Shown here piece after piece: positions 10,644 to 24,261 of a stretch of DNA of 27,402 bases. The DNA comes from an uncultured Candidatus Peribacteria bacterium. Its GTDB lineage: Bacteria > Patescibacteriota > Gracilibacteria > UBA1369 > 2-02-FULL-48-14. The stretch spans positions 1 to 27,402 of the forward strand of contig CAYGAB010000001.1 in assembly GCA_964347725.1 (NCBI GenBank), in the 5' to 3' direction. Made by a program: the position numbers and the translations under genes. The notes beneath the pieces are model-generated. The model was not told the DNA's origin. It ran no database searches and was given only the letters and a program-made list of their open reading frames with translations. Within the stretch, counting starts at the first letter, position 1. Each line of letters opens with the position of its first letter.

Positions 10644-10904
10644 ATGAATCAGCAGCACTTGAAAGAATTGGGCGGACTCTTGGTTGGATTGAACACCAGA
10701 GAAGAAGCGCTCGCCATGCTCAAAGATTTACTCACGGATTCTGAACTGGAATCGGTGGCGGAGCGGGTGCAGATTCTCAAGCTTCTGAGCCAAGGAATGC
10801 CCCACCGCAAGATCAGTGAAACGCTGGGAGTCAGCATTTCAAAAGTGACGCGCGGGTCCCATTGGCTACAGGCCAACCCTGCCATTGCCAGTAAAATCGC
10901 TTAA
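10644..10904 (+). CDS. trpR: Trp repressor (TrpR family)
   Basis: DLLTDSELESVAERV...GMPHRKISETLGVSISKVTRGS aligns with E. coli TrpR, including the T44/R54/R84 equivalents. ATG at 10644. Confidence 0.9.
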   Translation: MNQQHLKELGGLLVGLNTREEALAMLKDLLTDSELESVAERVQILKLLSQGMPHRKISETLGVSISKVTRGSHWLQANPAIASKIA

Positions 10905-10919
10905 TTTTTTTTACCTCAC

Positions 10920-12281
10920 ATGTACCGATCAACCAATACGTCCGTCACCCCCAAGTTCAAAAAGTTTCCGCTGGACGAACGTCTCACATTGCCAGTGTTG
11001 TTTGAACAGCTCACGGCCGATCAGCCAGAAGCATTTTTGTTTGAAAGTGCCGACAATGTGGGCGGGAAAGGCCGCTATTCTTATCTGGGTTTTGACCCTG
11101 CCAAGCGTTTTGTGTTTGAAGCGGGAGCCAAGGAGAATCCGCTGGAAATCTTGCGCCACTTTTGCCAAGAAATAGAATTCCACAAGAGTCCGGAACTGCC
11201 GCCTTTTCAGGGTGGATTCGTGGGCTATTTCAGTTATGAAGTGGGCCGACATTTTGAAGACCTGAATTTGCCCTTGGACGGAGCCAAAATTCCGGAAGGG
11301 ATTTTTTTCTTGCCTCAACAAATGGTCGCCATAGACCACAATCTCAAGGAACTATTTTTGATCGCCACCACACAAGAAGCGTTGGAAAGATTGGAGGCAA
11401 AATTCCGAAACGTGGACTTGTCGCTCAAAAAAATAAAAGCGAGTGATGAGCTCGATCGGTCAGATGAATCGGCAGCGCACGAAGACGAAGAAGCACGGTT
11501 GTTAGAAGGCATTGCCATGGCTCAAGAACGAATCAAAGCTGGAGAGATTTTTCAGGTGGTGCTGAGCCGAGGGTTCCAAAGAAAAACCAATTTAAGTCCA
11601 CTGGAGTTGTACGCTCGTTTGCGTTTGGCCTCCCCCTCGCCCTACATGTTTTTTCTGAAATTTGCCGATTTTTGCATTGCCGGCGCTTCTCCAGAAACCC
11701 AGGTGAAGATTCAAGATCGGCAGGTCATGGTGAGGCCCATTGCGGGAACTCGTCGTCGAGGTAGAACTCCGCTGGAAGATCTGGAGCTGGCTGAAGAACT
11801 GAGTCAAGACCCAAAAGAATTGGCCGAACACCAAATGTTGGTGGACTTGGCTCGCAACGACGTGGGCCGAGTGGCCAAACCCGGAACCGTGAGAGTCAGT
11901 CAGCACAAGGACATTCAAAAATTTAGCCACGTCATGCACATGGTTTCAGAAGTGCGAGGAGAACAATCTGAAGACAAAGATCTCTTTGATGTATTTCAAG
12001 CCAGTTTTCCGGCGGGAACTTTGTCTGGCGCACCCAAAGTGAGGGCCATGAAAATCATTGCCGAATTGGAAGCCAAACCACGAGACATTTATGGAGGTGC
12101 GGTGGGCTACTTCGGTCTGGACGGAAACATGGACTTGGCCATCGCCATCCGCACCATGCTCATCAAAGACGGAACCGTGACTTTCCGAACGGGAGCTGGA
12201 ATTGTGCACGACTCTCAGCCGAATTTGGAACACAAAGAGTGCCTCAACAAAGCGCAAGGAATTTTAACCGCTCTCCAATGA
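10920..12281 (+). CDS. trpE: Anthranilate synthase component I
   Basis: LFESA and SPSPYMF (Trp-feedback motifs), GEIFQVVLS, RPIAGT, EHQMLVDLARND, FPAGTLSGAPK, GAGIV. Confidence 0.95.
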   Translation: MYRSTNTSVTPKFKKFPLDERLTLPVLFEQLTADQPEAFLFESADNVGGKGRYSYLGFDPAKRFVFEAGAKENPLEILRHFCQEIEFHKSPELPPFQGGFVGYFSYEVGRHFEDLNLPLDGAKIPEGIFFLPQQMVAIDHNLKELFLIATTQEALERLEAKFRNVDLSLKKIKASDELDRSDESAAHEDEEARLLEGIAMAQERIKAGEIFQVVLSRGFQRKTNLSPLELYARLRLASPSPYMFFLKFADFCIAGASPETQVKIQDRQVMVRPIAGTRRRGRTPLEDLELAEELSQDPKELAEHQMLVDLARNDVGRVAKPGTVRVSQHKDIQKFSHVMHMVSEVRGEQSEDKDLFDVFQASFPAGTLSGAPKVRAMKIIAELEAKPRDIYGGAVGYFGLDGNMDLAIAIRTMLIKDGTVTFRTGAGIVHDSQPNLEHKECLNKAQGILTALQ

Positions 12282-13783
12282 TCCAGCCACTGAAGACCCT
12301 CATCATCGACAACTTTGATTCTTTCACCTACAACCTAGTCCAGCTTTGTGCGGAGCTGGGCGGCAATCCAGAAGTCAGGCGCAACAAGGCCATCACTTTG
12401 AAAGAAATTGAAGCTGGCAACTACACCCACATCATTTTGTCCCCCGGCCCCGGCACCCCAGAAAACCCGGAAGATTTTGGAGTGTGTGCGGAGGTGATTC
12501 AGTCGGGGTCATGCCTCGTTCCCGTTTTGGGAGTTTGCCTTGGACACCAAGGAATCATCGCAGGTTTGGGAGGGAAAATCCTTCGAGCGCCCGTCCCCAT
12601 GCACGGAAAATCCAGCCGCATTCGAGTCGATTCCACTCACCCACTTTTTTCTGGATTGGGCGAAGAGCTGGAAGTCATGCGTTACCATTCTCTCATCGGC
12701 GAGCGAGCAAGTTTGCCAGAGGATTTAGACGTGATCGCCGAAACGGAGGACGGCTTGGTCATGGCGGTGAGCAGCAAAACTCGGCCTTTGTACGGAGTGC
12801 AGTTTCACCCAGAAAGTGTGGGCACGCCGGACGGACGGAAAATCCTGGAGAATTTCTTGAACGTGAATACCGAACAACTCTTGAGGAACATGGCTCAGCG
12901 TGGCGAAAGCGCCGAAGAGTTGAGTCTATTCTTGAAGGAGTTCAAATCAAAATCGGTGCCCTTTCCTATTGAAGCGGAAGAGTCGAAGGAAGTGATGGAC
13001 ATCTGTGGAACGGGAGGTTCTGGCTTGGCTCGTATGAACCTCTCGACGACGGTGGCTTTTGTTTTGGCGGCAGGCGGAGTGAAGGTGGCCAAACACGGAA
13101 ATAAAGCGGGGTCCGGTCGCTGCGGAAGTTTTGATCTTTTGGAAGCTTTGGGAGTTCGAACGGAGCTTAGTCCTCCAACCTTGCGCCGTTCACTCGAGCA
13201 ATTCGATCTGGTGTTTTTATTTGCGCCAGCCTTCCACCCGAGCATGAAGCAATTTGCAGAAATTCGAAAAAAAATAGCGCACCGCACGATTTTCAATCTG
13301 CTGGGACCCTTGCTCAATCCAGCCAATCCGGGATTTCAGTTGATCGGAACCACCGATGCCAAGACGGCGGAAACGCTCATGGCTGTTTTGCAAAAATCAA
13401 CCGAGAAAACTGCGATGGTGCTGCACAACGAAAGCGGTCTGGACGAAGCCATTGTGCACGGCCCGACTCAAATTCTTGAACTCAAAGACGGACAAATCAG
13501 CCGATGGGTTTTAGACCCAAAATCACTTGGACTTGGACACCCTCAAGCCCCTGAAATCGACTGGAAAAAGGCAAGCCCAGTGGACACGAATGTCCAGCTC
13601 TTTGACGACTTGCTCCACAAAAAAACGCCCGGACCTTTGATGGATCAACTGCTCCTCAATGCGGCGCTCGCCTTCAAATTGCGTGGCCGAGTGGCCAGCC
13701 TGGAAGACGGGGTGACATTGGCAAGAAATCTCATTCAAAGCGGCGCTGCTTTCCAAACTTTTCTAAACCACCAATCTTTATGA
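12278..13783 (+). CDS. trpG-trpD: Fused anthranilate synthase component II (GATase) and anthranilate phosphoribosyltransferase
   Basis: [31 protein letters not shown]; then [32 protein letters not shown]. Start at ATG 12278 (ATGA overlap with trpE). Confidence 0.93.
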
Positions 13784-15603
13784 ACGCATTTTACCAAGCC
13801 ATTCACGGCAAAGATCAGATTTCCATCATTGCGGAAATCAAAAAAGCCTCCCCCAGCCACGGGCCTTTTGGCCGTCACGCCGAACTGGATTTGATTCGCG
13901 CTTACGAATCGGCCGGAGCCAGTGCCATTTCCGTGGTGACAGAAGCACCTCGTTTTCAAGGGAGCATGGACTTGCTCAGGCGCGTGGTTCAAGCCACTTC
14001 ATTGCCAGTCATTCGCAAGGATTTTCTGACGCAAACTCAAGACATAGATGAAACGGCAGAGGCCGGTGCGTCGGCGGTTTTGCTCATCGCTCATTTGCTC
14101 AGTGTTCAGGAATTGGGGGCCATGATTCGCCACGCCCTCAAAAAAAATCTCATGCCATTGGTGGAATTGCACGACCAAGCCGATGTGGAAAAAATGAAAT
14201 CGCTCGGGCAAATTCCTGGGGTGGTTTTGGGCATCAACAATCGCGATTTGCAGACCTTGAAAACGGACGTGGACCACGCCCTTTCTTTGCTCGCCGAACT
14301 AGATCCTTTTTATCCCGTGGTGGCGGAAAGTGCTTTTGCGGAGGCCTCTCAACTGGAACCCTACTTTGGAAAAGTGGACGCCGCTTTGGTGGGCACCGCT
14401 TTTTTAACGGCGGAAGATCCTCAGGCCAAAGTGACATCTTTTGTCCACGCCGGAAACAAGGCCTACTTTGGGAATTACGGCGGACAATTCGTGAACGAAA
14501 TGTTGGTGCCCGTGCTCAAAGAAGTGGAGGAAGCTTTTGAACGATTTTGCGCCGATTCAACTCAGCAAGCCGAACTCGCCGATCTGCTCAAAAACTTTGC
14601 TGGTCGAGAAACACCCCTCACCCACGCGCGCAATCTTTCGAAGGAATTGGGCTTTCAGCTCTATCTAAAGCGCGAGGACTTATTGCACGGCGGAGCCCAC
14701 AAAACCAACAACGCGCTGGGGCAGGTTTTGCTGGCCAAGTTCATGGGCAAGAAAGAAATCATTGCGGAAACGGGAGCGGGACAGCATGGAGTGGCGACGG
14801 CCTTGGCCGGAGCCATGATGGGTTTGCCCGTCAAAATCTTCATGGGATCCGTGGACATTGAACGGCAGCAGCCCAACGCCCTCCGCATGAAATTGTTTGG
14901 CGCAGAACTCATTCCAGTAGAAACGGGATCCAAAACCCTCAAAGACGCGATCAATGAAGCCCTGCGCTATTACGTGGCGCACAACCAAGAAGTCTATTAC
15001 GTTTTTGGCACGGCGGCGGGACCTCATCCCTTTCCACGTTTGGTGAGCCACTTTCAATCGGTGATCGGCAAAGAAGCTCGTGCGCAAATTTTGGAGCGAA
15101 CCGGAAAACTCCCCAATAAAATTGTGGCCTGCGTGGGGGGTGGAAGCAACGCCATCGGCATTTTTTCCGCTTTTTTGAAGGACGAAAATGTTGAGCTGAT
15201 CGGCGTGGAGCCTGCGTTGGGCGCACCTCTCCAAAATGGAAGTCCCGGCATTGTGCACGGAGCCCTTTCCTATCTCATGCAAGACGAACACGGCCAGGTC
15301 ACAGAAAGCCACAGTTGCGCCGCTGGCCTGGACTACCCCGGCGTTGGCCCAGAACACAGCTTTCTCAAAGACCAAGGCCGAGCCAAGTACCTCTCCATCA
15401 CAGACGCAGAAGCCCTGCACGCGCTCCAAGTCCTTTGCCAAAAAGAAGGCATTTTGCCAGCGCTGGAATCGTCCCACGCTTTGGCTCAAGCTCTTAAATT
15501 CAAAGGGCAATTGGGCTCAGAGGACATCGTGATCGTTAATTTGTCTGGCCGTGGAGACAAAGACCTGGCCCAAGTGAACGAACTCCTAACCCAAATCCAA
15601 TGA
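13780..15603 (+). CDS. trpC-trpB: Fused indole-3-glycerol-phosphate synthase and tryptophan synthase beta chain
   Basis: [25 protein letters not shown], then in frame [24 protein letters not shown] (PLP lysine), [37 protein letters not shown]. No stop or TrpF sequence between the two domains. Confidence 0.93.
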
Positions 15604-16367
15604 AAGACCGCTACCAAGAAACTTTTGCCAGTCTGCGCCGAGAAAACAAAAAAGCCTTCTGTGCTTTTGCCGTTTTGGGCGATCCAAATCCAGAGGAATG
15701 TCTTCAGCGAATCCAAGAAATGTTGAAGGCCAAGCCCGATATTTTAGAACTCGGCATTCCCTTTTCGGATCCAGTGGCGGATGGCCCTGTCATTCAAGCC
15801 GCCGACGAACGAGCCTTAAAATCTGGAACCACGCCAAAATCCGCTCTGCAACTCTTGTCAAAAATTCGTCTCCAAACAGAGGTGCCGATTGGACTTTTGG
15901 TCTACGCCAACACGGTTTTTAAATACGGAATTGACCGATTTTACTCTGATGCCAAAAAGGCCGGCGCGGACAGCATTTTGATCGCCGATGTGCCTTTGGA
16001 AGAAATCCAGCCCTTCGCCGATTCGGCCAAAACTCACCAAATCCATCAAGTCATGATGTTGAGTGAAAACACCTCCACCGAACGCCTCAAACAACTCGAA
16101 CGCGTGGGCAGTGGATTTTTTTACGTGGTTTCTCAGATGGGCGTGACCGGGGACCGCCAAGGCCTCAATCCAAAAGTGGCGGAGCTTCTGGCACGATTCA
16201 AGTCCAGCACCAAAATCCCACTCCTTCTGGGATTTGGCATTTCGACGTCCGACCACATCCGAACTCTGAAAAACGCTCCCGTGGACGGATTGATCGTGGG
16301 AAGTGCGCTCGTCAAAACGCCAACCCATGAGCTGTTTGAAACCTTAAACGAACTCATCCATGCTTGA
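15600..16367 (+). CDS. trpA: Tryptophan synthase alpha chain
   Basis: [19 protein letters not shown] (catalytic Glu/Asp), GVTG, GFGIS, IVGSALV. Confidence 0.97.
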
Positions 16368-16851
16368 CCAAGACGCCACCGTTTTCACTTATTGTTACTC
16401 TCGCACGGTCTTTGCGATTTTAAAACAAGCCCAGCAAAAGGGACACAAAATTCAGGTTTTGCTTCCAGAAACTCGACCCAACTTCACGGGCCGACTCATG
16501 GCCAAAGCCCTTTTGGAAGCCGAAATTCCCGTCACTTTTTTCCCCGATATCCTGTCCTACGAACAGATGAAACGCGCCGATTTATTCCTCTTTGGCGTGG
16601 ATTTTATGGCTCCAGATGGGCGAATCCTCAACAAGGCTGGAACCGCCACCTTGGTTCAACTGGCGCGCCAGCTCAAAGTCCCCACCTTTGCCTGCACCTC
16701 TCCCAAAAAAACCGTCTCCCTTGAAGCTTTTCTTGCCGCGCAAAAACTCACCCGCCCTTCCTCCGAACTTTGGCCAGACGCTCCCGACTCGCCAAACCTC
16801 ACCTTGCTTTCCCCCGCTTACGATTTGGTGGACGGAGTGGACATTTGGTAA
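16360..16851 (+). CDS. IF-2B / MtnA / ribose-1,5-bisphosphate-isomerase family protein, C-terminal Rossmann domain only
   Basis: TVFTYCYS, ETRP..TGR, IPVTFFPD, LFGVD, GRILNKAGT, VPTF match the family core; 163 aa with the N-terminal helical domain absent; 8-nt overlap (ATGCTTGA) with trpA. Confidence 0.85.
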   Translation: MLDQDATVFTYCYSRTVFAILKQAQQKGHKIQVLLPETRPNFTGRLMAKALLEAEIPVTFFPDILSYEQMKRADLFLFGVDFMAPDGRILNKAGTATLVQLARQLKVPTFACTSPKKTVSLEAFLAAQKLTRPSSELWPDAPDSPNLTLLSPAYDLVDGVDIW

Positions 16852-16922: not shown

Positions 16923-16954
16923 GCTTGACTAAACCACAATTCAGTTTATCATTT
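16923..16954 (+). promoter_or_regulatory. Junction motif copy 1 / sigma70 promoter (TTGACT-16-TATCAT)
   Basis: gcTTGACTaaaccacaattcagttTATCATtt; 25/32 identical to 17705-17736. Confidence 0.65.
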
Positions 16955-16982: not shown

Positions 16983-17714
16983 GTGAAAAAGCAACATGTT
17001 GATTTAAGTCACCTCACAGGCCCTCGGTCAACTGAATTATTGTTGGATTGGCAGGAAATGGGCCGTGAGCCAAATCGCAGGGAAAATTATTCGAACGCAT
17101 CTGGTCTCCCAGAAGAATTGGTCATGGCCCTGTCTACTCTGCAGCAGGCGATTCAAGCACAAATACAGTTTCCACACAGTATGTCTAATTTGATGAGGCT
17201 CACTTCTGCGGCAGTGAAGTCCAGCAGTGCTACTTTCGTCAGAACCTCCACGTGGACGATCAAGGGCTTGGTAAACCCTAAAAAAAGAAGAGCTGGACGA
17301 GATTTATATACAGAAGCCGTGGTGGCTTGTTCCATTGCCTTGGGAAGATTGTCTTTAGGGAGTGACGAGCTGAATTCATTTGGGGTGGCACAAAGGGAGC
17401 TCACGCACAGTCGAGGCCTAGAGGAATTGAAAAGCAAATGGGCGGCAGAAGGGATAACAACCGTTGACATCAACGGGCTGGACAGGAGCAAGGCTTTGAA
17501 ACATCTGGGAGACAGGAACAGAAGGCTTTCCCAAAAGGATTTGGCACTGTTGCGTGCACCTGGAGATTTGAGAAGTTTAGAACGTCGTGCAGAGGCTGAA
17601 GCCAGCACGTGGTCTCCAGAAGTTCTCAGCCCAATCGCCCGGAGCAGCTTTCTGACCGCTGTGGACCACGCTGCGGAACGGAGGCAGCGAAAAGGGCTCA
17701 AAAGGCTTGACTAA
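16983..17714 (+). CDS. Hypothetical protein, paralog of the downstream gene (shared C-terminal motif)
   Basis: 243 aa, GTG start; EASTWSPEVLSPIARSSFLT at 17598-17657. Confidence 0.7.
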   Translation: MKKQHVDLSHLTGPRSTELLLDWQEMGREPNRRENYSNASGLPEELVMALSTLQQAIQAQIQFPHSMSNLMRLTSAAVKSSSATFVRTSTWTIKGLVNPKKRRAGRDLYTEAVVACSIALGRLSLGSDELNSFGVAQRELTHSRGLEELKSKWAAEGITTVDINGLDRSKALKHLGDRNRRLSQKDLALLRAPGDLRSLERRAEAEASTWSPEVLSPIARSSFLTAVDHAAERRQRKGLKRLD

Positions 17715-17736
17715 GCCAATATTTCGGTTATTATTT
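17705..17736 (+). promoter_or_regulatory. Junction motif copy 2 / sigma70 promoter (TTGACT-16-TATTAT) overlapping the upstream stop codon
   Basis: gcTTGACTaagccaatatttcggtTATTATtt; the TAA stop (17712-17714) lies at the end of the -35 box. Confidence 0.65.
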
Positions 17737-17760
17737 TTTCCAAAATTTGAGATTAAATCC

Positions 17761-18708
17761 ATGGAAATCGACAGAGCAAATGTGCCGAAAGAAATAATGA
17801 ATACCGGCCCCCTTGTGGACTGGTGGAAGGAAAAGATGAACATGGGTTTTCAAGTGCCCGAGCTTGAAATTGAAGAGGCGTCACCTCCAGATTCTGTGGC
17901 AAGTGTTCTGAGCGATACCAGAGAAGCTATCGTAAGAAGAATAGAATCAGGTAGACCGTGGAGTATCGGTAGCGTGCATGGGATTGTTCGTCAATCAATA
18001 GCCAGAGAACCGGCAGGCATGGTGGACCCTAAGGTAGATGCAATCCTATCTAGATGGGGTGTTGAAACATTGATGATCGCTGATCCAAGCAGAGTGTGTG
18101 CCATCGCCCTCACTAGACAAGCTTTGGTGGGAGGAGCACCTGGGTTTACTCCTGAAGTTAATCTTACGGAAGCAGAGCAGCAGGTGACGGAGGCGCAGCA
18201 GGCATATGAAGCATTGCTGTCAAAGAATAAGGAGATCTGGGCCGATATCGAGAGCCAAGATAGAGAATTAAGAGCGAAAAAACCCACGGCAGAAAGGCTT
18301 AGAGCTCTATTGGAGAAACTGGTGGGTGCGGCTTTCCCAGGTCGGAGTCTGAACTTTGCGGCGATTCAAACTGAAATAGCTCGAGCAGAACAAGGTGCTG
18401 GAGCAAAAACTTTGTTGGCCCACTCCAACATTATGACAACCCACAACGAGCTAGCAATTGCAGAAGAAGAGATTAGGAGCTTGACTGCTGCGATTGAGCG
18501 AAATGAGAGCTTTTTCAATAATTTGGAATATGACGATCGTAGTGCGTACGGAAACCAATTGAGGGCAGAGGGATTGGTGCTTGAGGCAAGAACATGGACT
18601 CAAGACTTTCTAGAGCCAATTGCGCAAAGCAGCTTTATGACAGGGCTTGCAATCAAAGCTATGAAAAATGCGGCAAAGTTAAAACGGGGAAAGATCAGTC
18701 TGAATTAA
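17761..18708 (+). CDS. Hypothetical coiled-coil-rich protein, paralog of the upstream gene
   Basis: ATG at 17761, downstream of the promoter, preferred over TTG 17707; heptad-like helices; EARTWTQDFLEPIAQSSFMT at 18583-18642. Confidence 0.75.
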   Translation: MEIDRANVPKEIMNTGPLVDWWKEKMNMGFQVPELEIEEASPPDSVASVLSDTREAIVRRIESGRPWSIGSVHGIVRQSIAREPAGMVDPKVDAILSRWGVETLMIADPSRVCAIALTRQALVGGAPGFTPEVNLTEAEQQVTEAQQAYEALLSKNKEIWADIESQDRELRAKKPTAERLRALLEKLVGAAFPGRSLNFAAIQTEIARAEQGAGAKTLLAHSNIMTTHNELAIAEEEIRSLTAAIERNESFFNNLEYDDRSAYGNQLRAEGLVLEARTWTQDFLEPIAQSSFMTGLAIKAMKNAAKLKRGKISLN

Positions 18709-18727
18709 GCCACCAATAAGGTCATTG
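18698..18727 (+). repeat. Junction motif copy 3 (degenerate)
   Basis: 19/30 identical to 17704-17733, with TAAGCCA again centred on the stop codon (18706-18708). Confidence 0.45.
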
Positions 18728-18746
18728 AATACTCAATATTCCTCAA

Positions 18747-19964
18747 ATGAAATCAAATCCAGATCAATGGCTCATTCTCGACAATGATTACACTATTTCC
18801 GGACAGGAGGGATACCGAAGTGAATGTCTGCCCGGCCTAGAGCCATTGTTAGTTAGGCAAGGTAAAGAAAGAAATGTTGCCGTTTATTCAAGGAGCGGCC
18901 TCGCGTCCATAAACAGAAGGTTAGGAGATAAAACTAAGCATTTGGACGGGATCTTCTCCCAGTGTGAACCTATGATGTCCGATTCAGACGTATTGCTTTT
19001 TCAGGGGGGTCTTCATCACAGAAGTGAAGTAGCGGAAATCACCGGAGAAACAAAGGCTCAAATTCAAGCAGCAAGGGAGGTAGTCGTGAGGCAAGACCAT
19101 CCCACCTTAGTTGAAGAGCTGCGTATCCTGACATTTGCTTATGAATTCCATGAGCGCTATAAAAAAACTATAGCGCCTGGACGAGTGGTTAGTAGGGATA
19201 AGATTCAAGAGGATATGGATTCTTATCCAGGTGACGTACAAATCCTAAAATCTAGCCCCAACACAACATACAGGAACTTTCATTTCCCATTTCCTCTGGG
19301 CACTACCTTAACGCCAGAACTGGAAAATGCCATTCGAATCCGCCTTGCACAACAACAAAAGGAAGGAAGTTCCAAACATCAAACAACAATGCAACCTCTA
19401 AAGGATCAACTACAAGCGTATCGCACGCAGACTAACTTTGAGGCTGTTTTAAATAAATATCGGGATTTAATTTCTGAACAATGGACTTACAAGGGCTCTG
19501 GGGGGTCTGTAAGTGCCGACTACTACCGAAATCCCTACACGGGGGCTGCTAATATGGACCTTAAAGATCTACACCGCTTACGACTGAGAATGAAATCGGA
19601 AGGACGTAGTGAATCGATGAAAATGGTCATGATTGAAGACTGGTATGGTATTCAAGAGGGGTCCATCCACGAAAGCGACCCCCTCACGCCAGTACTAGTG
19701 GTGGATCCTGAGGACAGCGGATGGATTCAAAGAGGGGCGATAGAAGGGCTCGTTGAACGACTGTTCCAGCATCCAGATGGCCCGAATCATGCTTTTCGTG
19801 CCATGCTATCGAACGCTCCATCTACAAATCACCGCTACGTCAAGCGTAGGTGCAGCCTTACTTTAGACGGTCATCGTTTTGTCTTAGGAGAAGGGAAAAG
19901 AGGAGGATTCGTTGGCACTGAAAACACTCCACGAAATCTGAAATTCTTTAACAAGCTTTCTTAA
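18747..19964 (+). CDS. HAD-superfamily hydrolase, NIF/FCP1-like motif arrangement with a large insertion
   Basis: Motif I WLILDNDYT (DxDxT), LPGLEPLL, motif II VAVYSRS, then after about 190 extra residues LKDLHRL (motif III Lys) and MVMIED (motif IV). Confidence 0.6.
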   Translation: MKSNPDQWLILDNDYTISGQEGYRSECLPGLEPLLVRQGKERNVAVYSRSGLASINRRLGDKTKHLDGIFSQCEPMMSDSDVLLFQGGLHHRSEVAEITGETKAQIQAAREVVVRQDHPTLVEELRILTFAYEFHERYKKTIAPGRVVSRDKIQEDMDSYPGDVQILKSSPNTTYRNFHFPFPLGTTLTPELENAIRIRLAQQQKEGSSKHQTTMQPLKDQLQAYRTQTNFEAVLNKYRDLISEQWTYKGSGGSVSADYYRNPYTGAANMDLKDLHRLRLRMKSEGRSESMKMVMIEDWYGIQEGSIHESDPLTPVLVVDPEDSGWIQRGAIEGLVERLFQHPDGPNHAFRAMLSNAPSTNHRYVKRRCSLTLDGHRFVLGEGKRGGFVGTENTPRNLKFFNKLS

Positions 19965-23220: not shown

Positions 23221-24261
23221 ATGCGTTTCACCGTCACCAAAAAATTACCTCGCGCGGAGGACATCATTCAAAAGCATCCCCTCTCCGACCGAGCTTGGGA
23301 ACAAATCGACCAAGACAAAAAAGAACTCCAAGCGATTCTGTCTGGCCGAGATGACAGAAAAATCGTGATCGTCGGACCTTGTTCCGCCTGGCCTTTTGAA
23401 GGCGTTTTGGACTACGCCGCTCGACTCAAAGAACTCAGCAAAAAAGTGGATCACAAACTCAAAATCGTGATGCGCTGCTACATCCAAAAACCACGCACCA
23501 CCAAAGGCTGGTTGGGGCCAGTCAATCAACCCGATCCTTACGCCGTTCCCGACATTGAAGCCGGCGCTTATTACGCCCGCAGCCTCATGGTGCAGATCAT
23601 AGAAATGGGTTTGCCGATTGCGGACGAAGCCGTTTTCACCAACAATGCCAAAGGATTTGTGGAACTTTTATCTTGGTTGGCGATTGGCGCTCGCAGCACA
23701 GAAGATCAAGAACATCGCATTTTTGCCTCCGCCGTGGACTGCCCCGTTGGCATGAAAAATCCAACCAGCGGAATGATTGAAATTGGAGCGAACAGCGTGG
23801 TGGTGGCGCAACACCCGCACACCGCCGTTTTTGATGGAATGCAGGTGGAAACTCAGGGAAATCCTTACGCTCATTTGGTCTTGCGTGGAGGTCTGCATAG
23901 GTCCAACTACCACGTGGAAGACTTGTACGAAGCCAAAAAATGTCTGGAAGCCGCTCAAGTTAAAAACCCGGCTGTGATAGTGGACGCCAGCCACGACAAC
24001 TGCAAAATCAACGGTGCCAAAAACGCAGTTCAACAGATGCACGTCGTGAGAGAAATCATGTCCACTTTGGCGCTTTATCCAGAGCTCAATTCTCTCGTCA
24101 AAGGCTTCATGTTGGAAAGTTTCATCAAACGTGGCAGTCAAAAAATCGAATCCATGAAGCCTGAAGAAGTGGACATGGGCGGACTTTCCATCACAGACCC
24201 CTGCCTCGGTTGGGAAGACACCGAGCAACTGCTCCTAGAAATGGCCAACACGCTCGTATAA
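23221..24261 (+). CDS. DAHP synthase, class I-alpha (AroF/G/H family)
   Basis: GPCS, KPRTT, IGARS, PVGMKN, LVLRGG, IVDASHDN, MLES, SITDPCLGW. Effector specificity cannot be read from the sequence by eye. Confidence 0.93.
   Translation: MRFTVTKKLPRAEDIIQKHPLSDRAWEQIDQDKKELQAILSGRDDRKIVIVGPCSAWPFEGVLDYAARLKELSKKVDHKLKIVMRCYIQKPRTTKGWLGPVNQPDPYAVPDIEAGAYYARSLMVQIIEMGLPIADEAVFTNNAKGFVELLSWLAIGARSTEDQEHRIFASAVDCPVGMKNPTSGMIEIGANSVVVAQHPHTAVFDGMQVETQGNPYAHLVLRGGLHRSNYHVEDLYEAKKCLEAAQVKNPAVIVDASHDNCKINGAKNAVQQMHVVREIMSTLALYPELNSLVKGFMLESFIKRGSQKIESMKPEEVDMGGLSITDPCLGWEDTEQLLLEMANTLV

Follow-up and report, generated by a model that had tools for sequence, protein, structure and literature searches.

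Ribose-1,5-bisphosphate isomerase (R15Pi) and phosphoribosylanthranilate isomerase (TrpF) catalyse reactions of the same kind, each converting a C1-substituted ribofuranose 5-phosphate to a C1-substituted ribulose 5-phosphate. In particular, the TrpF substrate, N-(5-phosphoribosyl)anthranilate (PRA), is ribose 5-phosphate with anthranilate at C1, and the aldose-to-ketose shift catalysed by TrpF keeps the C1 substituent. Like R15Pi, TrpF uses a Cys/Asp acid–base pair. The R15Pi (e2b2) references used here are Thermococcus kodakarensis TK0185 (PDB 3A11 and 3VM6) and Pyrococcus horikoshii PH0208 (PDB 5YFJ). In the complex of the P. horikoshii enzyme with ribulose 1,5-bisphosphate (RuBP), Cys135 and Asp204 are the catalytic residues; Arg22 and Arg65 of the N-terminal domain, together with Gln166 and Lys215, contact the 1-phosphate; Ser137, Lys240, and backbone amides contact the 5-phosphate; and Asp204, Asn214, and Lys215 contact the sugar oxygens (PMC5789824), ligand roles with which a second study agrees (PMC6423476). 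Here we describe IF2Bs, a gene at positions 16360..16851 (+) of a 27,402-nucleotide (nt) stretch of DNA, hereafter the window, from an uncultured Candidatus Peribacteria bacterium (GenBank assembly GCA_964347725.1, contig CAYGAB010000001.1). IF2Bs encodes a 163-amino-acid (aa) stand-alone C-terminal domain of the R15Pi/IF-2B family and is the last gene of a trpR-E-GD-CB-A operon. On the comparisons reported below, the balance tips slightly towards IF2Bs being a non-orthologous PRA isomerase that replaces TrpF.

An earlier note on this DNA had described the gene as the final gene of the trp operon, overlapping trpA by 8 nt, and the operon as one without a PRA isomerase. The open reading frame (ORF) and a reading of the sequence confirm the first point: the IF2Bs ATG lies inside the last trpA codons (overlap ATGCTTGA, 16360..16367, +). 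Pfam confirms the second, with no PRAI domain among the upstream genes. For IF2Bs itself, Pfam IF-2B (PF01008) is the sole match (residues 3–157, E 2.4e-29, 102.9 bits against a cut-off of 22.4), and PF00697 (PRAI) is not among the matches. Because the match spans only profile positions 105–263 of 280, the N-terminal helical domain is absent, as the note had claimed. Specifically, the protein departs from the two-domain IF-2B architecture in that it begins 5 residues ahead of the first C-terminal-domain strand, with a complete trpA upstream. In one detail the note is corrected: the closest characterised proteins are R15P isomerases and not MtnA. TIGR00511 (R15Pi, EC 5.3.1.29) is the top-ranked NCBIfam equivalog, yet it falls below its cut-off (71.1 versus 314.1 bits), and the best PDB sequence matches are the R15P isomerases of T. 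kodakarensis and P. horikoshii (E 7e-17); TIGR00512 (MtnA) is a weaker match, at 37.7 bits against a cut-off of 279.

The predicted structure and the pattern of substitution indicate a genuine gene. An AlphaFold2 model built from 150 homologs shows a complete alpha/beta domain (pLDDT 97.2, pTM 0.90), and the predicted fold of IF2Bs is that of an intact catalytic domain of Rossmann-like type. The top Foldseek matches of the model in the PDB are the R15Pi structures 3a11, 3a9c, 5yfj, and 3vm6 (TMq ~0.85, root-mean-square deviation ~2.2 Å, ~160 residues). A search of 5.8 billion proteins returned a single further copy of 163 aa. It is 88% identical, comes from a JGI metagenome contig (L043), and likewise overlaps the end of trpA. 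Between the two copies, which are equal in length and free of indels, the ratio of nonsynonymous to synonymous substitution rates (dN/dS) is 0.164 (dS 0.42); for the adjoining piece of trpA it is 0.119. IF2Bs is under purifying selection. Taken with the lack of indels and the confident model, the dN/dS value marks IF2Bs as a selected, foldable single-domain protein, and a pseudogene or remnant is ruled out by dN/dS, the lack of indels, and the conserved clade described below. The wider explanation, that IF2Bs is a decaying remnant or that trpF is in the 11% of the genome missing from the assembly, is hardly credible: compared with the family, the protein is cut short at both ends, and the source genome (G000; 1.09 Mb, 198 contigs) is 88.75% complete, but a dN/dS of 0.16 with no indels, the confident model, the existence of a conserved clade of such proteins, and the absence of PRAI from 6/6 carrier genomes all argue against it.

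IF2Bs belongs to a clade of proteins that lack the N-terminal domain. Among 1.84 billion representatives searched exhaustively with HMMER, P0003, P0004, P0005, P0009, P0012, P0024, and P0076 (173–205 aa, 36–45% identity) outrank every full-length R15Pi. Twelve distinct short proteins, including four more from GTDB genomes, form an exclusive clade with two subclades (SH-aLRT 90); its members are 163–205 aa long and come from Peregrinibacteria/Gracilibacteria. Two motifs mark the clade. The first is C-[YF]-S, a place taken by C-H-S in 105 of 151 representatives; the second is RP-x-x-[TL]-G, in contrast to a canonical motif with Q-G at its end. Among the 151 representatives, the carriers of the full two-motif signature are all short. 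No fusion of the short domain to Trp enzymes was found among the longer matches examined. One metagenomic protein, P0020 (318 aa), has an IF-2B C-terminal domain followed by a Peptidase_C69 fragment and may be chimeric or mis-called. In the class of the source genome, family f29 has in-frame TGA codons, which we take to suggest an alternative genetic code of the Gracilibacteria kind and hence a place in the Peregrinibacteria/Gracilibacteria part of the candidate phyla radiation.

Alignment of IF2Bs to R15Pi, in which IF2Bs numbering equals Pyrococcus numbering minus 123, reveals that the active site has been changed selectively. Cys12 and Asp81 align with T. kodakarensis Cys133 and Asp202, equivalent to P. 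horikoshii Cys135 and Asp204, in agreement with the earlier note, which had recognised the conserved Cys in TYCYS and Asp in FGVD. The Cys12 codon is TGT (16393–16395) and opens a stretch, aligned to 3a11/5yfj, that encodes the catalytic Cys, the clade-specific Tyr13 in place of the canonical His, and the 5-phosphate-binding Ser14 (16393..16401, +); the Asp81 codon is GAT (16600..16602, +). The codons for Asn91 and Lys92, equivalents of the sugar-hydroxyl ligands Asn214 and Lys215, lie at 16630..16635 (+), and the codon for Lys117, equivalent of the 5-phosphate ligand Lys240, at 16708..16710 (+). At the position of the 1-phosphate ligand Gln166, IF2Bs has Thr43 (16486..16488, +); the roles of Gln166, Asn214, and Lys215 are those given for Pyrococcus R15Pi (PMC5789824).

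The same pattern extends over the clade, as judged from 13 short-clade versus 124 full-length sequences. The short-clade sequences have Cys at the position of Cys135 in 13/13 cases (105/124 of the full-length sequences), Ser at Ser137 in 13/13 (124/124), Asn at Asn214 in 13/13 (117/124), Lys at Lys215 in 13/13 (120/124), and Lys at Lys240 in 13/13 (119/124); at Asp204, 10 have Asp and 3 have Glu (Asp in 120/124). The position of His136, which is His in 97/124 full-length sequences, is Tyr in 12 and Phe in 1 of the 13, and that of Gln166, which is Gln in 105/124, is Thr in 10, Leu in 3, and Gln in none. The earlier note had linked loss of the lid to loss of ribose-1-phosphate binding, and the residues bear this out: Arg22 and Arg65 are gone with the N-terminal domain, Gln166 is replaced by Thr or Leu, and Lys92, the Lys215 equivalent, alone remains. 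Since three of the four 1-phosphate side chains are lost while the Cys, the Asp or Glu, and the sugar and 5-phosphate ligands are kept, the alignment indicates an intact catalytic machinery and ribose-5-phosphate half-site beside a dismantled 1-phosphate half.

A related pattern is seen in eIF2B-alpha, which also keeps sugar and 5-phosphate ligands without 1-phosphate ligands (PMC5789824), and IF2Bs might by analogy be a non-catalytic sugar-phosphate-binding or regulatory subunit, perhaps a pentose 5-phosphate sensor that modulates a Trp enzyme. However, the catalytic Cys is lost in eIF2B-alpha and invariant here (13/13), with Asp or Glu kept at the second catalytic position, and IF2Bs has no N-terminal domain to mediate the regulatory motion. 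Given the invariant Cys, we consider an eIF2B-alpha-like role very improbable.

The genomic context ties the short form to tryptophan synthesis. The earlier note had asked whether the truncated gene recurs with trp operons that lack trpF, and it does so in diverged relatives, where the short-clade genes in trp operons encode proteins with 35–45% identity to the window protein. In L060, the order is trpR .. trpGD, trpC, DAHP synthase, trpB, trpA, short gene, and in L063 it is trpE, trpGD, trpC, trpB, trpA, short gene, with a 14-nt overlap with trpA in each; in L056, trpA and the short gene overlap by 29 nt. L120 and L121 have full operons ending in trpA and the short gene, and L122 and L123 have trpA followed by the short gene. 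In L062, the order is trpE, trpGD, trpC, DAHP synthase, trpB, short gene, trpA, and the short gene overlaps the following trpA by 4 nt. TrpF was not detected on the contigs L056, L060, L062, L063, and L120–L123. Homologs beside trpF-containing operons, which the note had named as evidence to the contrary, were not found: in a control set of 79 loci, centred on the closest non-CPR relatives of TrpA (from Methanoregula, Phycisphaerae, Pirellulales, and others), TrpF lies within 10 kb in 56 and an IF2Bs-like gene in 0. As read from the DNA, IF2Bs would be co-transcribed with trpA in trpF-less trp operons, and it is probably translationally coupled to trpA; a search for expression data returned DNA runs only.

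The closest known relatives of the window trp genes are those of L060, L062, L063, L120, and L121 (TrpB 65–71% and TrpA 48–60% identical). In a TrpB tree, these five loci and the window, the six operons with a usable TrpB, form one clade (100/100), on a long branch away from all other Peribacteria trp operons. The nearest TrpA proteins outside the Peregrinibacteria clade are those of Methanoregula, Phycisphaerae/Sedimentisphaerales, and Pirellulales (37–47% identity). The identity of these relatives and the long branch of the TrpB clade suggest that the trp operon was acquired horizontally.

At the level of whole genomes, PRAI (PF00697) is absent from 6/6 genomes that carry the short form (G000 and G418–G422; Peribacteria, Gracilibacteria, and Peregrinibacteria). 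In a sample of 41 genomes (G000 and 40 relatives), 16 have TrpA, and 11/16 of these have PRAI, usually in a TrpD-C-F fusion. The genome search that the earlier note had called for gave a divided answer: in G000, neither Pfam PRAI nor the TrpF protein of a relative as query found a PRAI/TrpF, within or outside the window, and HisA is present. Because of this HisA, the objection that a PriA or HisA enzyme supplies the activity is not fully cleared. A role as a ribose-5-phosphate isomerase analog is unnecessary, since RpiB is present in all six carrier genomes. RuBisCO was not found in any of the 12 genomes tested, and its absence was dropped as an argument against an R15Pi role, as relatives with canonical R15Pi also lack it.

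G000 also has a stand-alone 217-aa HisA-like protein, encoded between ychF and relA/spoT on contig C38 (C38:4715-5368; L004:1495-2148). The catalytic Asp of strand beta-1 is missing from its sequence, which begins IIPSLFIQRGK, and single-copy paralogs like it are found across most genomes of the family, even where his or trp operons are absent. This protein is unlikely to be the missing isomerase, given its presence in many trp-less relatives, its lack of the beta-1 Asp, and its absence from G040, a relative with a trpF-less operon discussed below. A second, full-length IF-2B paralog (325 aa) on contig C34 of G000 (L002:466-1443) carries Ser where the catalytic Cys would be (HSHS), lacks the RP..QG motif, and is, by its residues, probably non-catalytic; C34-like paralogs are present in G007, G027, G029, G031, and G418.

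The signature of the short clade recurs in a distant group. Full-length IF-2B proteins of Altiarchaeum (288–295 aa; L119, L124, L211–L213, and L219–L221, in genomes G423–G425, with the G425 copy cut to 233 aa by the end of the locus) carry HCYS and RPN[RFW]TG. In the tree, these proteins are not sister to the short clade, and the signature therefore arose twice, independently. PRAI is absent from 3/3 of the signature-bearing genomes G423–G425, and the two that were checked for TrpA, G423 and G424, have it as a stand-alone gene. In the phylum of Altiarchaeum, PRAI is present in 46/61 genomes, and the other members checked have canonical THC[NQ]S...QG motifs.

We propose the following route from R15Pi to a PRA isomerase. 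An R15Pi ancestor of the IF-2B/e2b2 family would have lost its N-terminal lid domain and been retuned, giving a single-domain enzyme. The substrate would be a ribose 5-phosphate with a non-phosphate C1 substituent, namely PRA. The Cys/Asp pair would carry out ring opening and the 1,2 aldose–ketose shift, as for the conversion of R15P to RuBP, and the product, 1-(o-carboxyphenylamino)-1-deoxyribulose 5-phosphate, would be passed to TrpC.

Several observations weigh against this proposal. First, three relatives, G040, G026, and G031, keep intact trp operons that have neither TrpF nor the short form. In particular, G040 (L048; 99% complete, 6 contigs) has trpR-E-G-(D-C)-B-A, and no query found an IF-2B, HisA/HisF, or TrpF gene in its genome; G026 (L047) has a 976-aa TrpD-C-B fusion; and G031 (L049) has a TrpG-D-C fusion. 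These operons indicate that another route of PRA isomerisation exists in the order, one possibility being that a bifunctional TrpA or TrpC isomerises PRA in the three genomes. Second, a 2026 preprint shows that Salmonella deleted for trpF is rescued by point mutations arising in trpA or in hisA (bioRxiv 10.64898/2026.01.20.700655), and G000 (88.75% complete) has a HisA-HisF gene. Third, the parent enzyme closes its N-terminal domain over the active site and IF2Bs has none, so that the pocket, on structural grounds, is open unless an oligomer or partner covers it. Fourth, the linked operons descend from one ancestor, and the many linked loci therefore represent few independent events. The independent events are the clade of linked operons, the G418 lineage, and possibly Altiarchaeum. 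The G418 lineage has retained the gene alongside a trp operon of another type: the trpF-less trp operon of G418 lies at a separate site in the genome, and its TrpB is sister to that of G040 in the TrpB tree. Fifth, two members of subclade B, P0005 (G418) and P0076, lie directly after ackA, outside a trp operon. The ancestral arrangement in the order is pta-ackA-AMP phosphorylase-R15Pi, with nothing after ackA in G040 and G097, and the position of P0005 and P0076 is therefore attributed to ancestry; a functional tie to acetate kinase is ruled out on the same ground.

The first two of these observations favour the main rival, in which PRA is isomerised by a bifunctional (beta-alpha)8 barrel (TrpA, TrpC, or HisA) and the short protein has another trp-associated role on a pentose 5-phosphate. 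In addition, a TrpF side activity persists in extant HisA enzymes (PMC4732765), and G000 has the further HisA-like paralog beside HisA-HisF. However, a bifunctional barrel leaves unexplained why the short gene is restricted to PRAI-less genomes and held within trp operons at 35–45% protein identity, and why the 1-phosphate site specifically is dismantled. A HisA/HisF family gene is lacking at E ≤ 1e-8 in two carriers, G421 and G422; the Asp-Gly-Pro of TrpA loop 2, the site of the rescuing mutations in Salmonella, is unchanged here; and ribose-5-phosphate isomerisation is already served by RpiB. We therefore regard a bifunctional barrel as an unlikely, though serious, explanation.

The ackA-linked members bear on a second rival, in which IF2Bs is still an isomerase of R15P or a related 1-phospho-pentose and lies in the trp operon by accident or for supply of phosphoribosyl pyrophosphate (PRPP) or ribose phosphate. 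Its nearest relatives are R15Pi genes adjoining AMP phosphorylase, the catalytic dyad is retained, and the two members are at the ancestral ackA/R15Pi locus. On the other side, one of the four 1-phosphate ligands is left, the equivalog score is 71 against a cut-off of 314 bits, the position in the trp operon is kept over deep divergence, and the neighbours of IF2Bs in the window are trp genes, with no adjoining AMP phosphorylase gene in the window (no search of the whole of G000 for such a gene was made). A retained R15Pi role is accordingly improbable.

Replacement of TrpF by IF2Bs, the reading of the earlier note, is supported by every computational test available and remains a prediction. 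A fuller formulation, which we hold to be evenly balanced, is that tryptophan synthesis in one clade of candidate-phyla-radiation (CPR) bacteria relies on a PRA isomerase with a fold unlike that of TrpF, namely a lid-less R15Pi catalytic domain retuned by loss of the 1-phosphate site, and that full-length proteins of trpF-less Altiarchaeum acquired the same two substitutions independently.

The remainder of the trp unit in the window is as follows. The first gene encodes an 86-aa trpR-like repressor (10644..10904, +; Pfam Trp_repressor) and is followed by trpE (10920..12281, +; Pfam Chorismate_bind and Anth_synt_I_N), a trpG-trpD fusion (12239..13783, +; Pfam GATase and Glycos_transf_3), a trpC-trpB fusion (13780..15603, +), and trpA (15600..16367, +; Pfam Trp_syntA, E 8.3e-79). 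The 607-aa TrpC-TrpB protein matches Pfam IGPS at residues 3–220 and PALP at residues 275–589, an assignment also given by NCBIfam, and has no TrpF domain between its parts. Most of the closest relatives (L060, L062, L120, and L121 were compared) have separate trpC and trpB with a DAHP synthase gene between them, and gene order thus indicates that the trpC-trpB fusion took the place of the DAHP synthase gene, not of trpF. The DAHP synthase of the window sits in a downstream aro operon (23221–24261). Since a promoter-like site of the next gene (TTGACT-16-TATCAT, 16925..16952, +; a 10/12 consensus match, nothing more) follows IF2Bs, the DNA suggests that IF2Bs closes the trp transcription unit. 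The three ORFs 3′ of IF2Bs (16983–19964) have no Pfam or NCBIfam match and are not conserved beside the short gene at other loci; L043:1133-4753 holds two tandem paralogs of the 405-aa downstream ORF (55% and 46% identical).

A literature search found no paper linking the IF-2B family to TrpF and nothing on trpF loss in Peregrinibacteria. The sole natural TrpF replacement named in the literature found is PriA, the dual HisA/TrpF enzyme of Actinomycetota. PriA is a homologous barrel. Research on enzyme evolution has examined few enzymes as thoroughly as TrpF, and a Rossmann-fold PRA isomerase, if confirmed, would be a clean non-orthologous displacement, achieved by loss of a domain and two or so residue changes, and would establish a new family of analogous enzymes at a textbook step. 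Pathway calls would be corrected as well for these Peregrinibacteria, which are otherwise scored as tryptophan auxotrophs with an "incomplete" pathway.

In comparison with known systems, IF2Bs is closest to R15Pi: it has the fold of the R15Pi C-terminal domain, it keeps the catalytic Cys/Asp and the sugar and 5-phosphate ligands, and its proposed reaction is of the same type. It differs from R15Pi in lacking the N-terminal domain with Arg22, Arg65, and the lid, in having Thr/Leu for Gln166 and Tyr/Phe for His136, and in its position in a trp operon, whereas the full-length R15Pi orthologs of the order adjoin AMP phosphorylase. MtnA is of the same superfamily and performs the same kind of 1-substituted ribose isomerisation, but it has the N-terminal domain, binds a 1-phosphate, and is a weaker match than R15Pi. 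The alpha, beta, and delta subunits of eIF2B, which are of the same family, have likewise lost the 1-phosphate ligands and kept the sugar and 5-phosphate ligands (PMC5789824); unlike IF2Bs, they keep the N-terminal domain, have lost the catalytic Cys, and are non-enzymatic. IF2Bs stands, within the trp unit, at the gap in the pathway that TrpF (PF00697; EC 5.3.1.24) or PriA fills, and it has a Cys/Asp pair like that of TrpF. It is predicted to be Rossmann-like rather than a (beta-alpha)8 barrel and has no sequence similarity to them, and the relation of IF2Bs to TrpF and PriA would be functional only.

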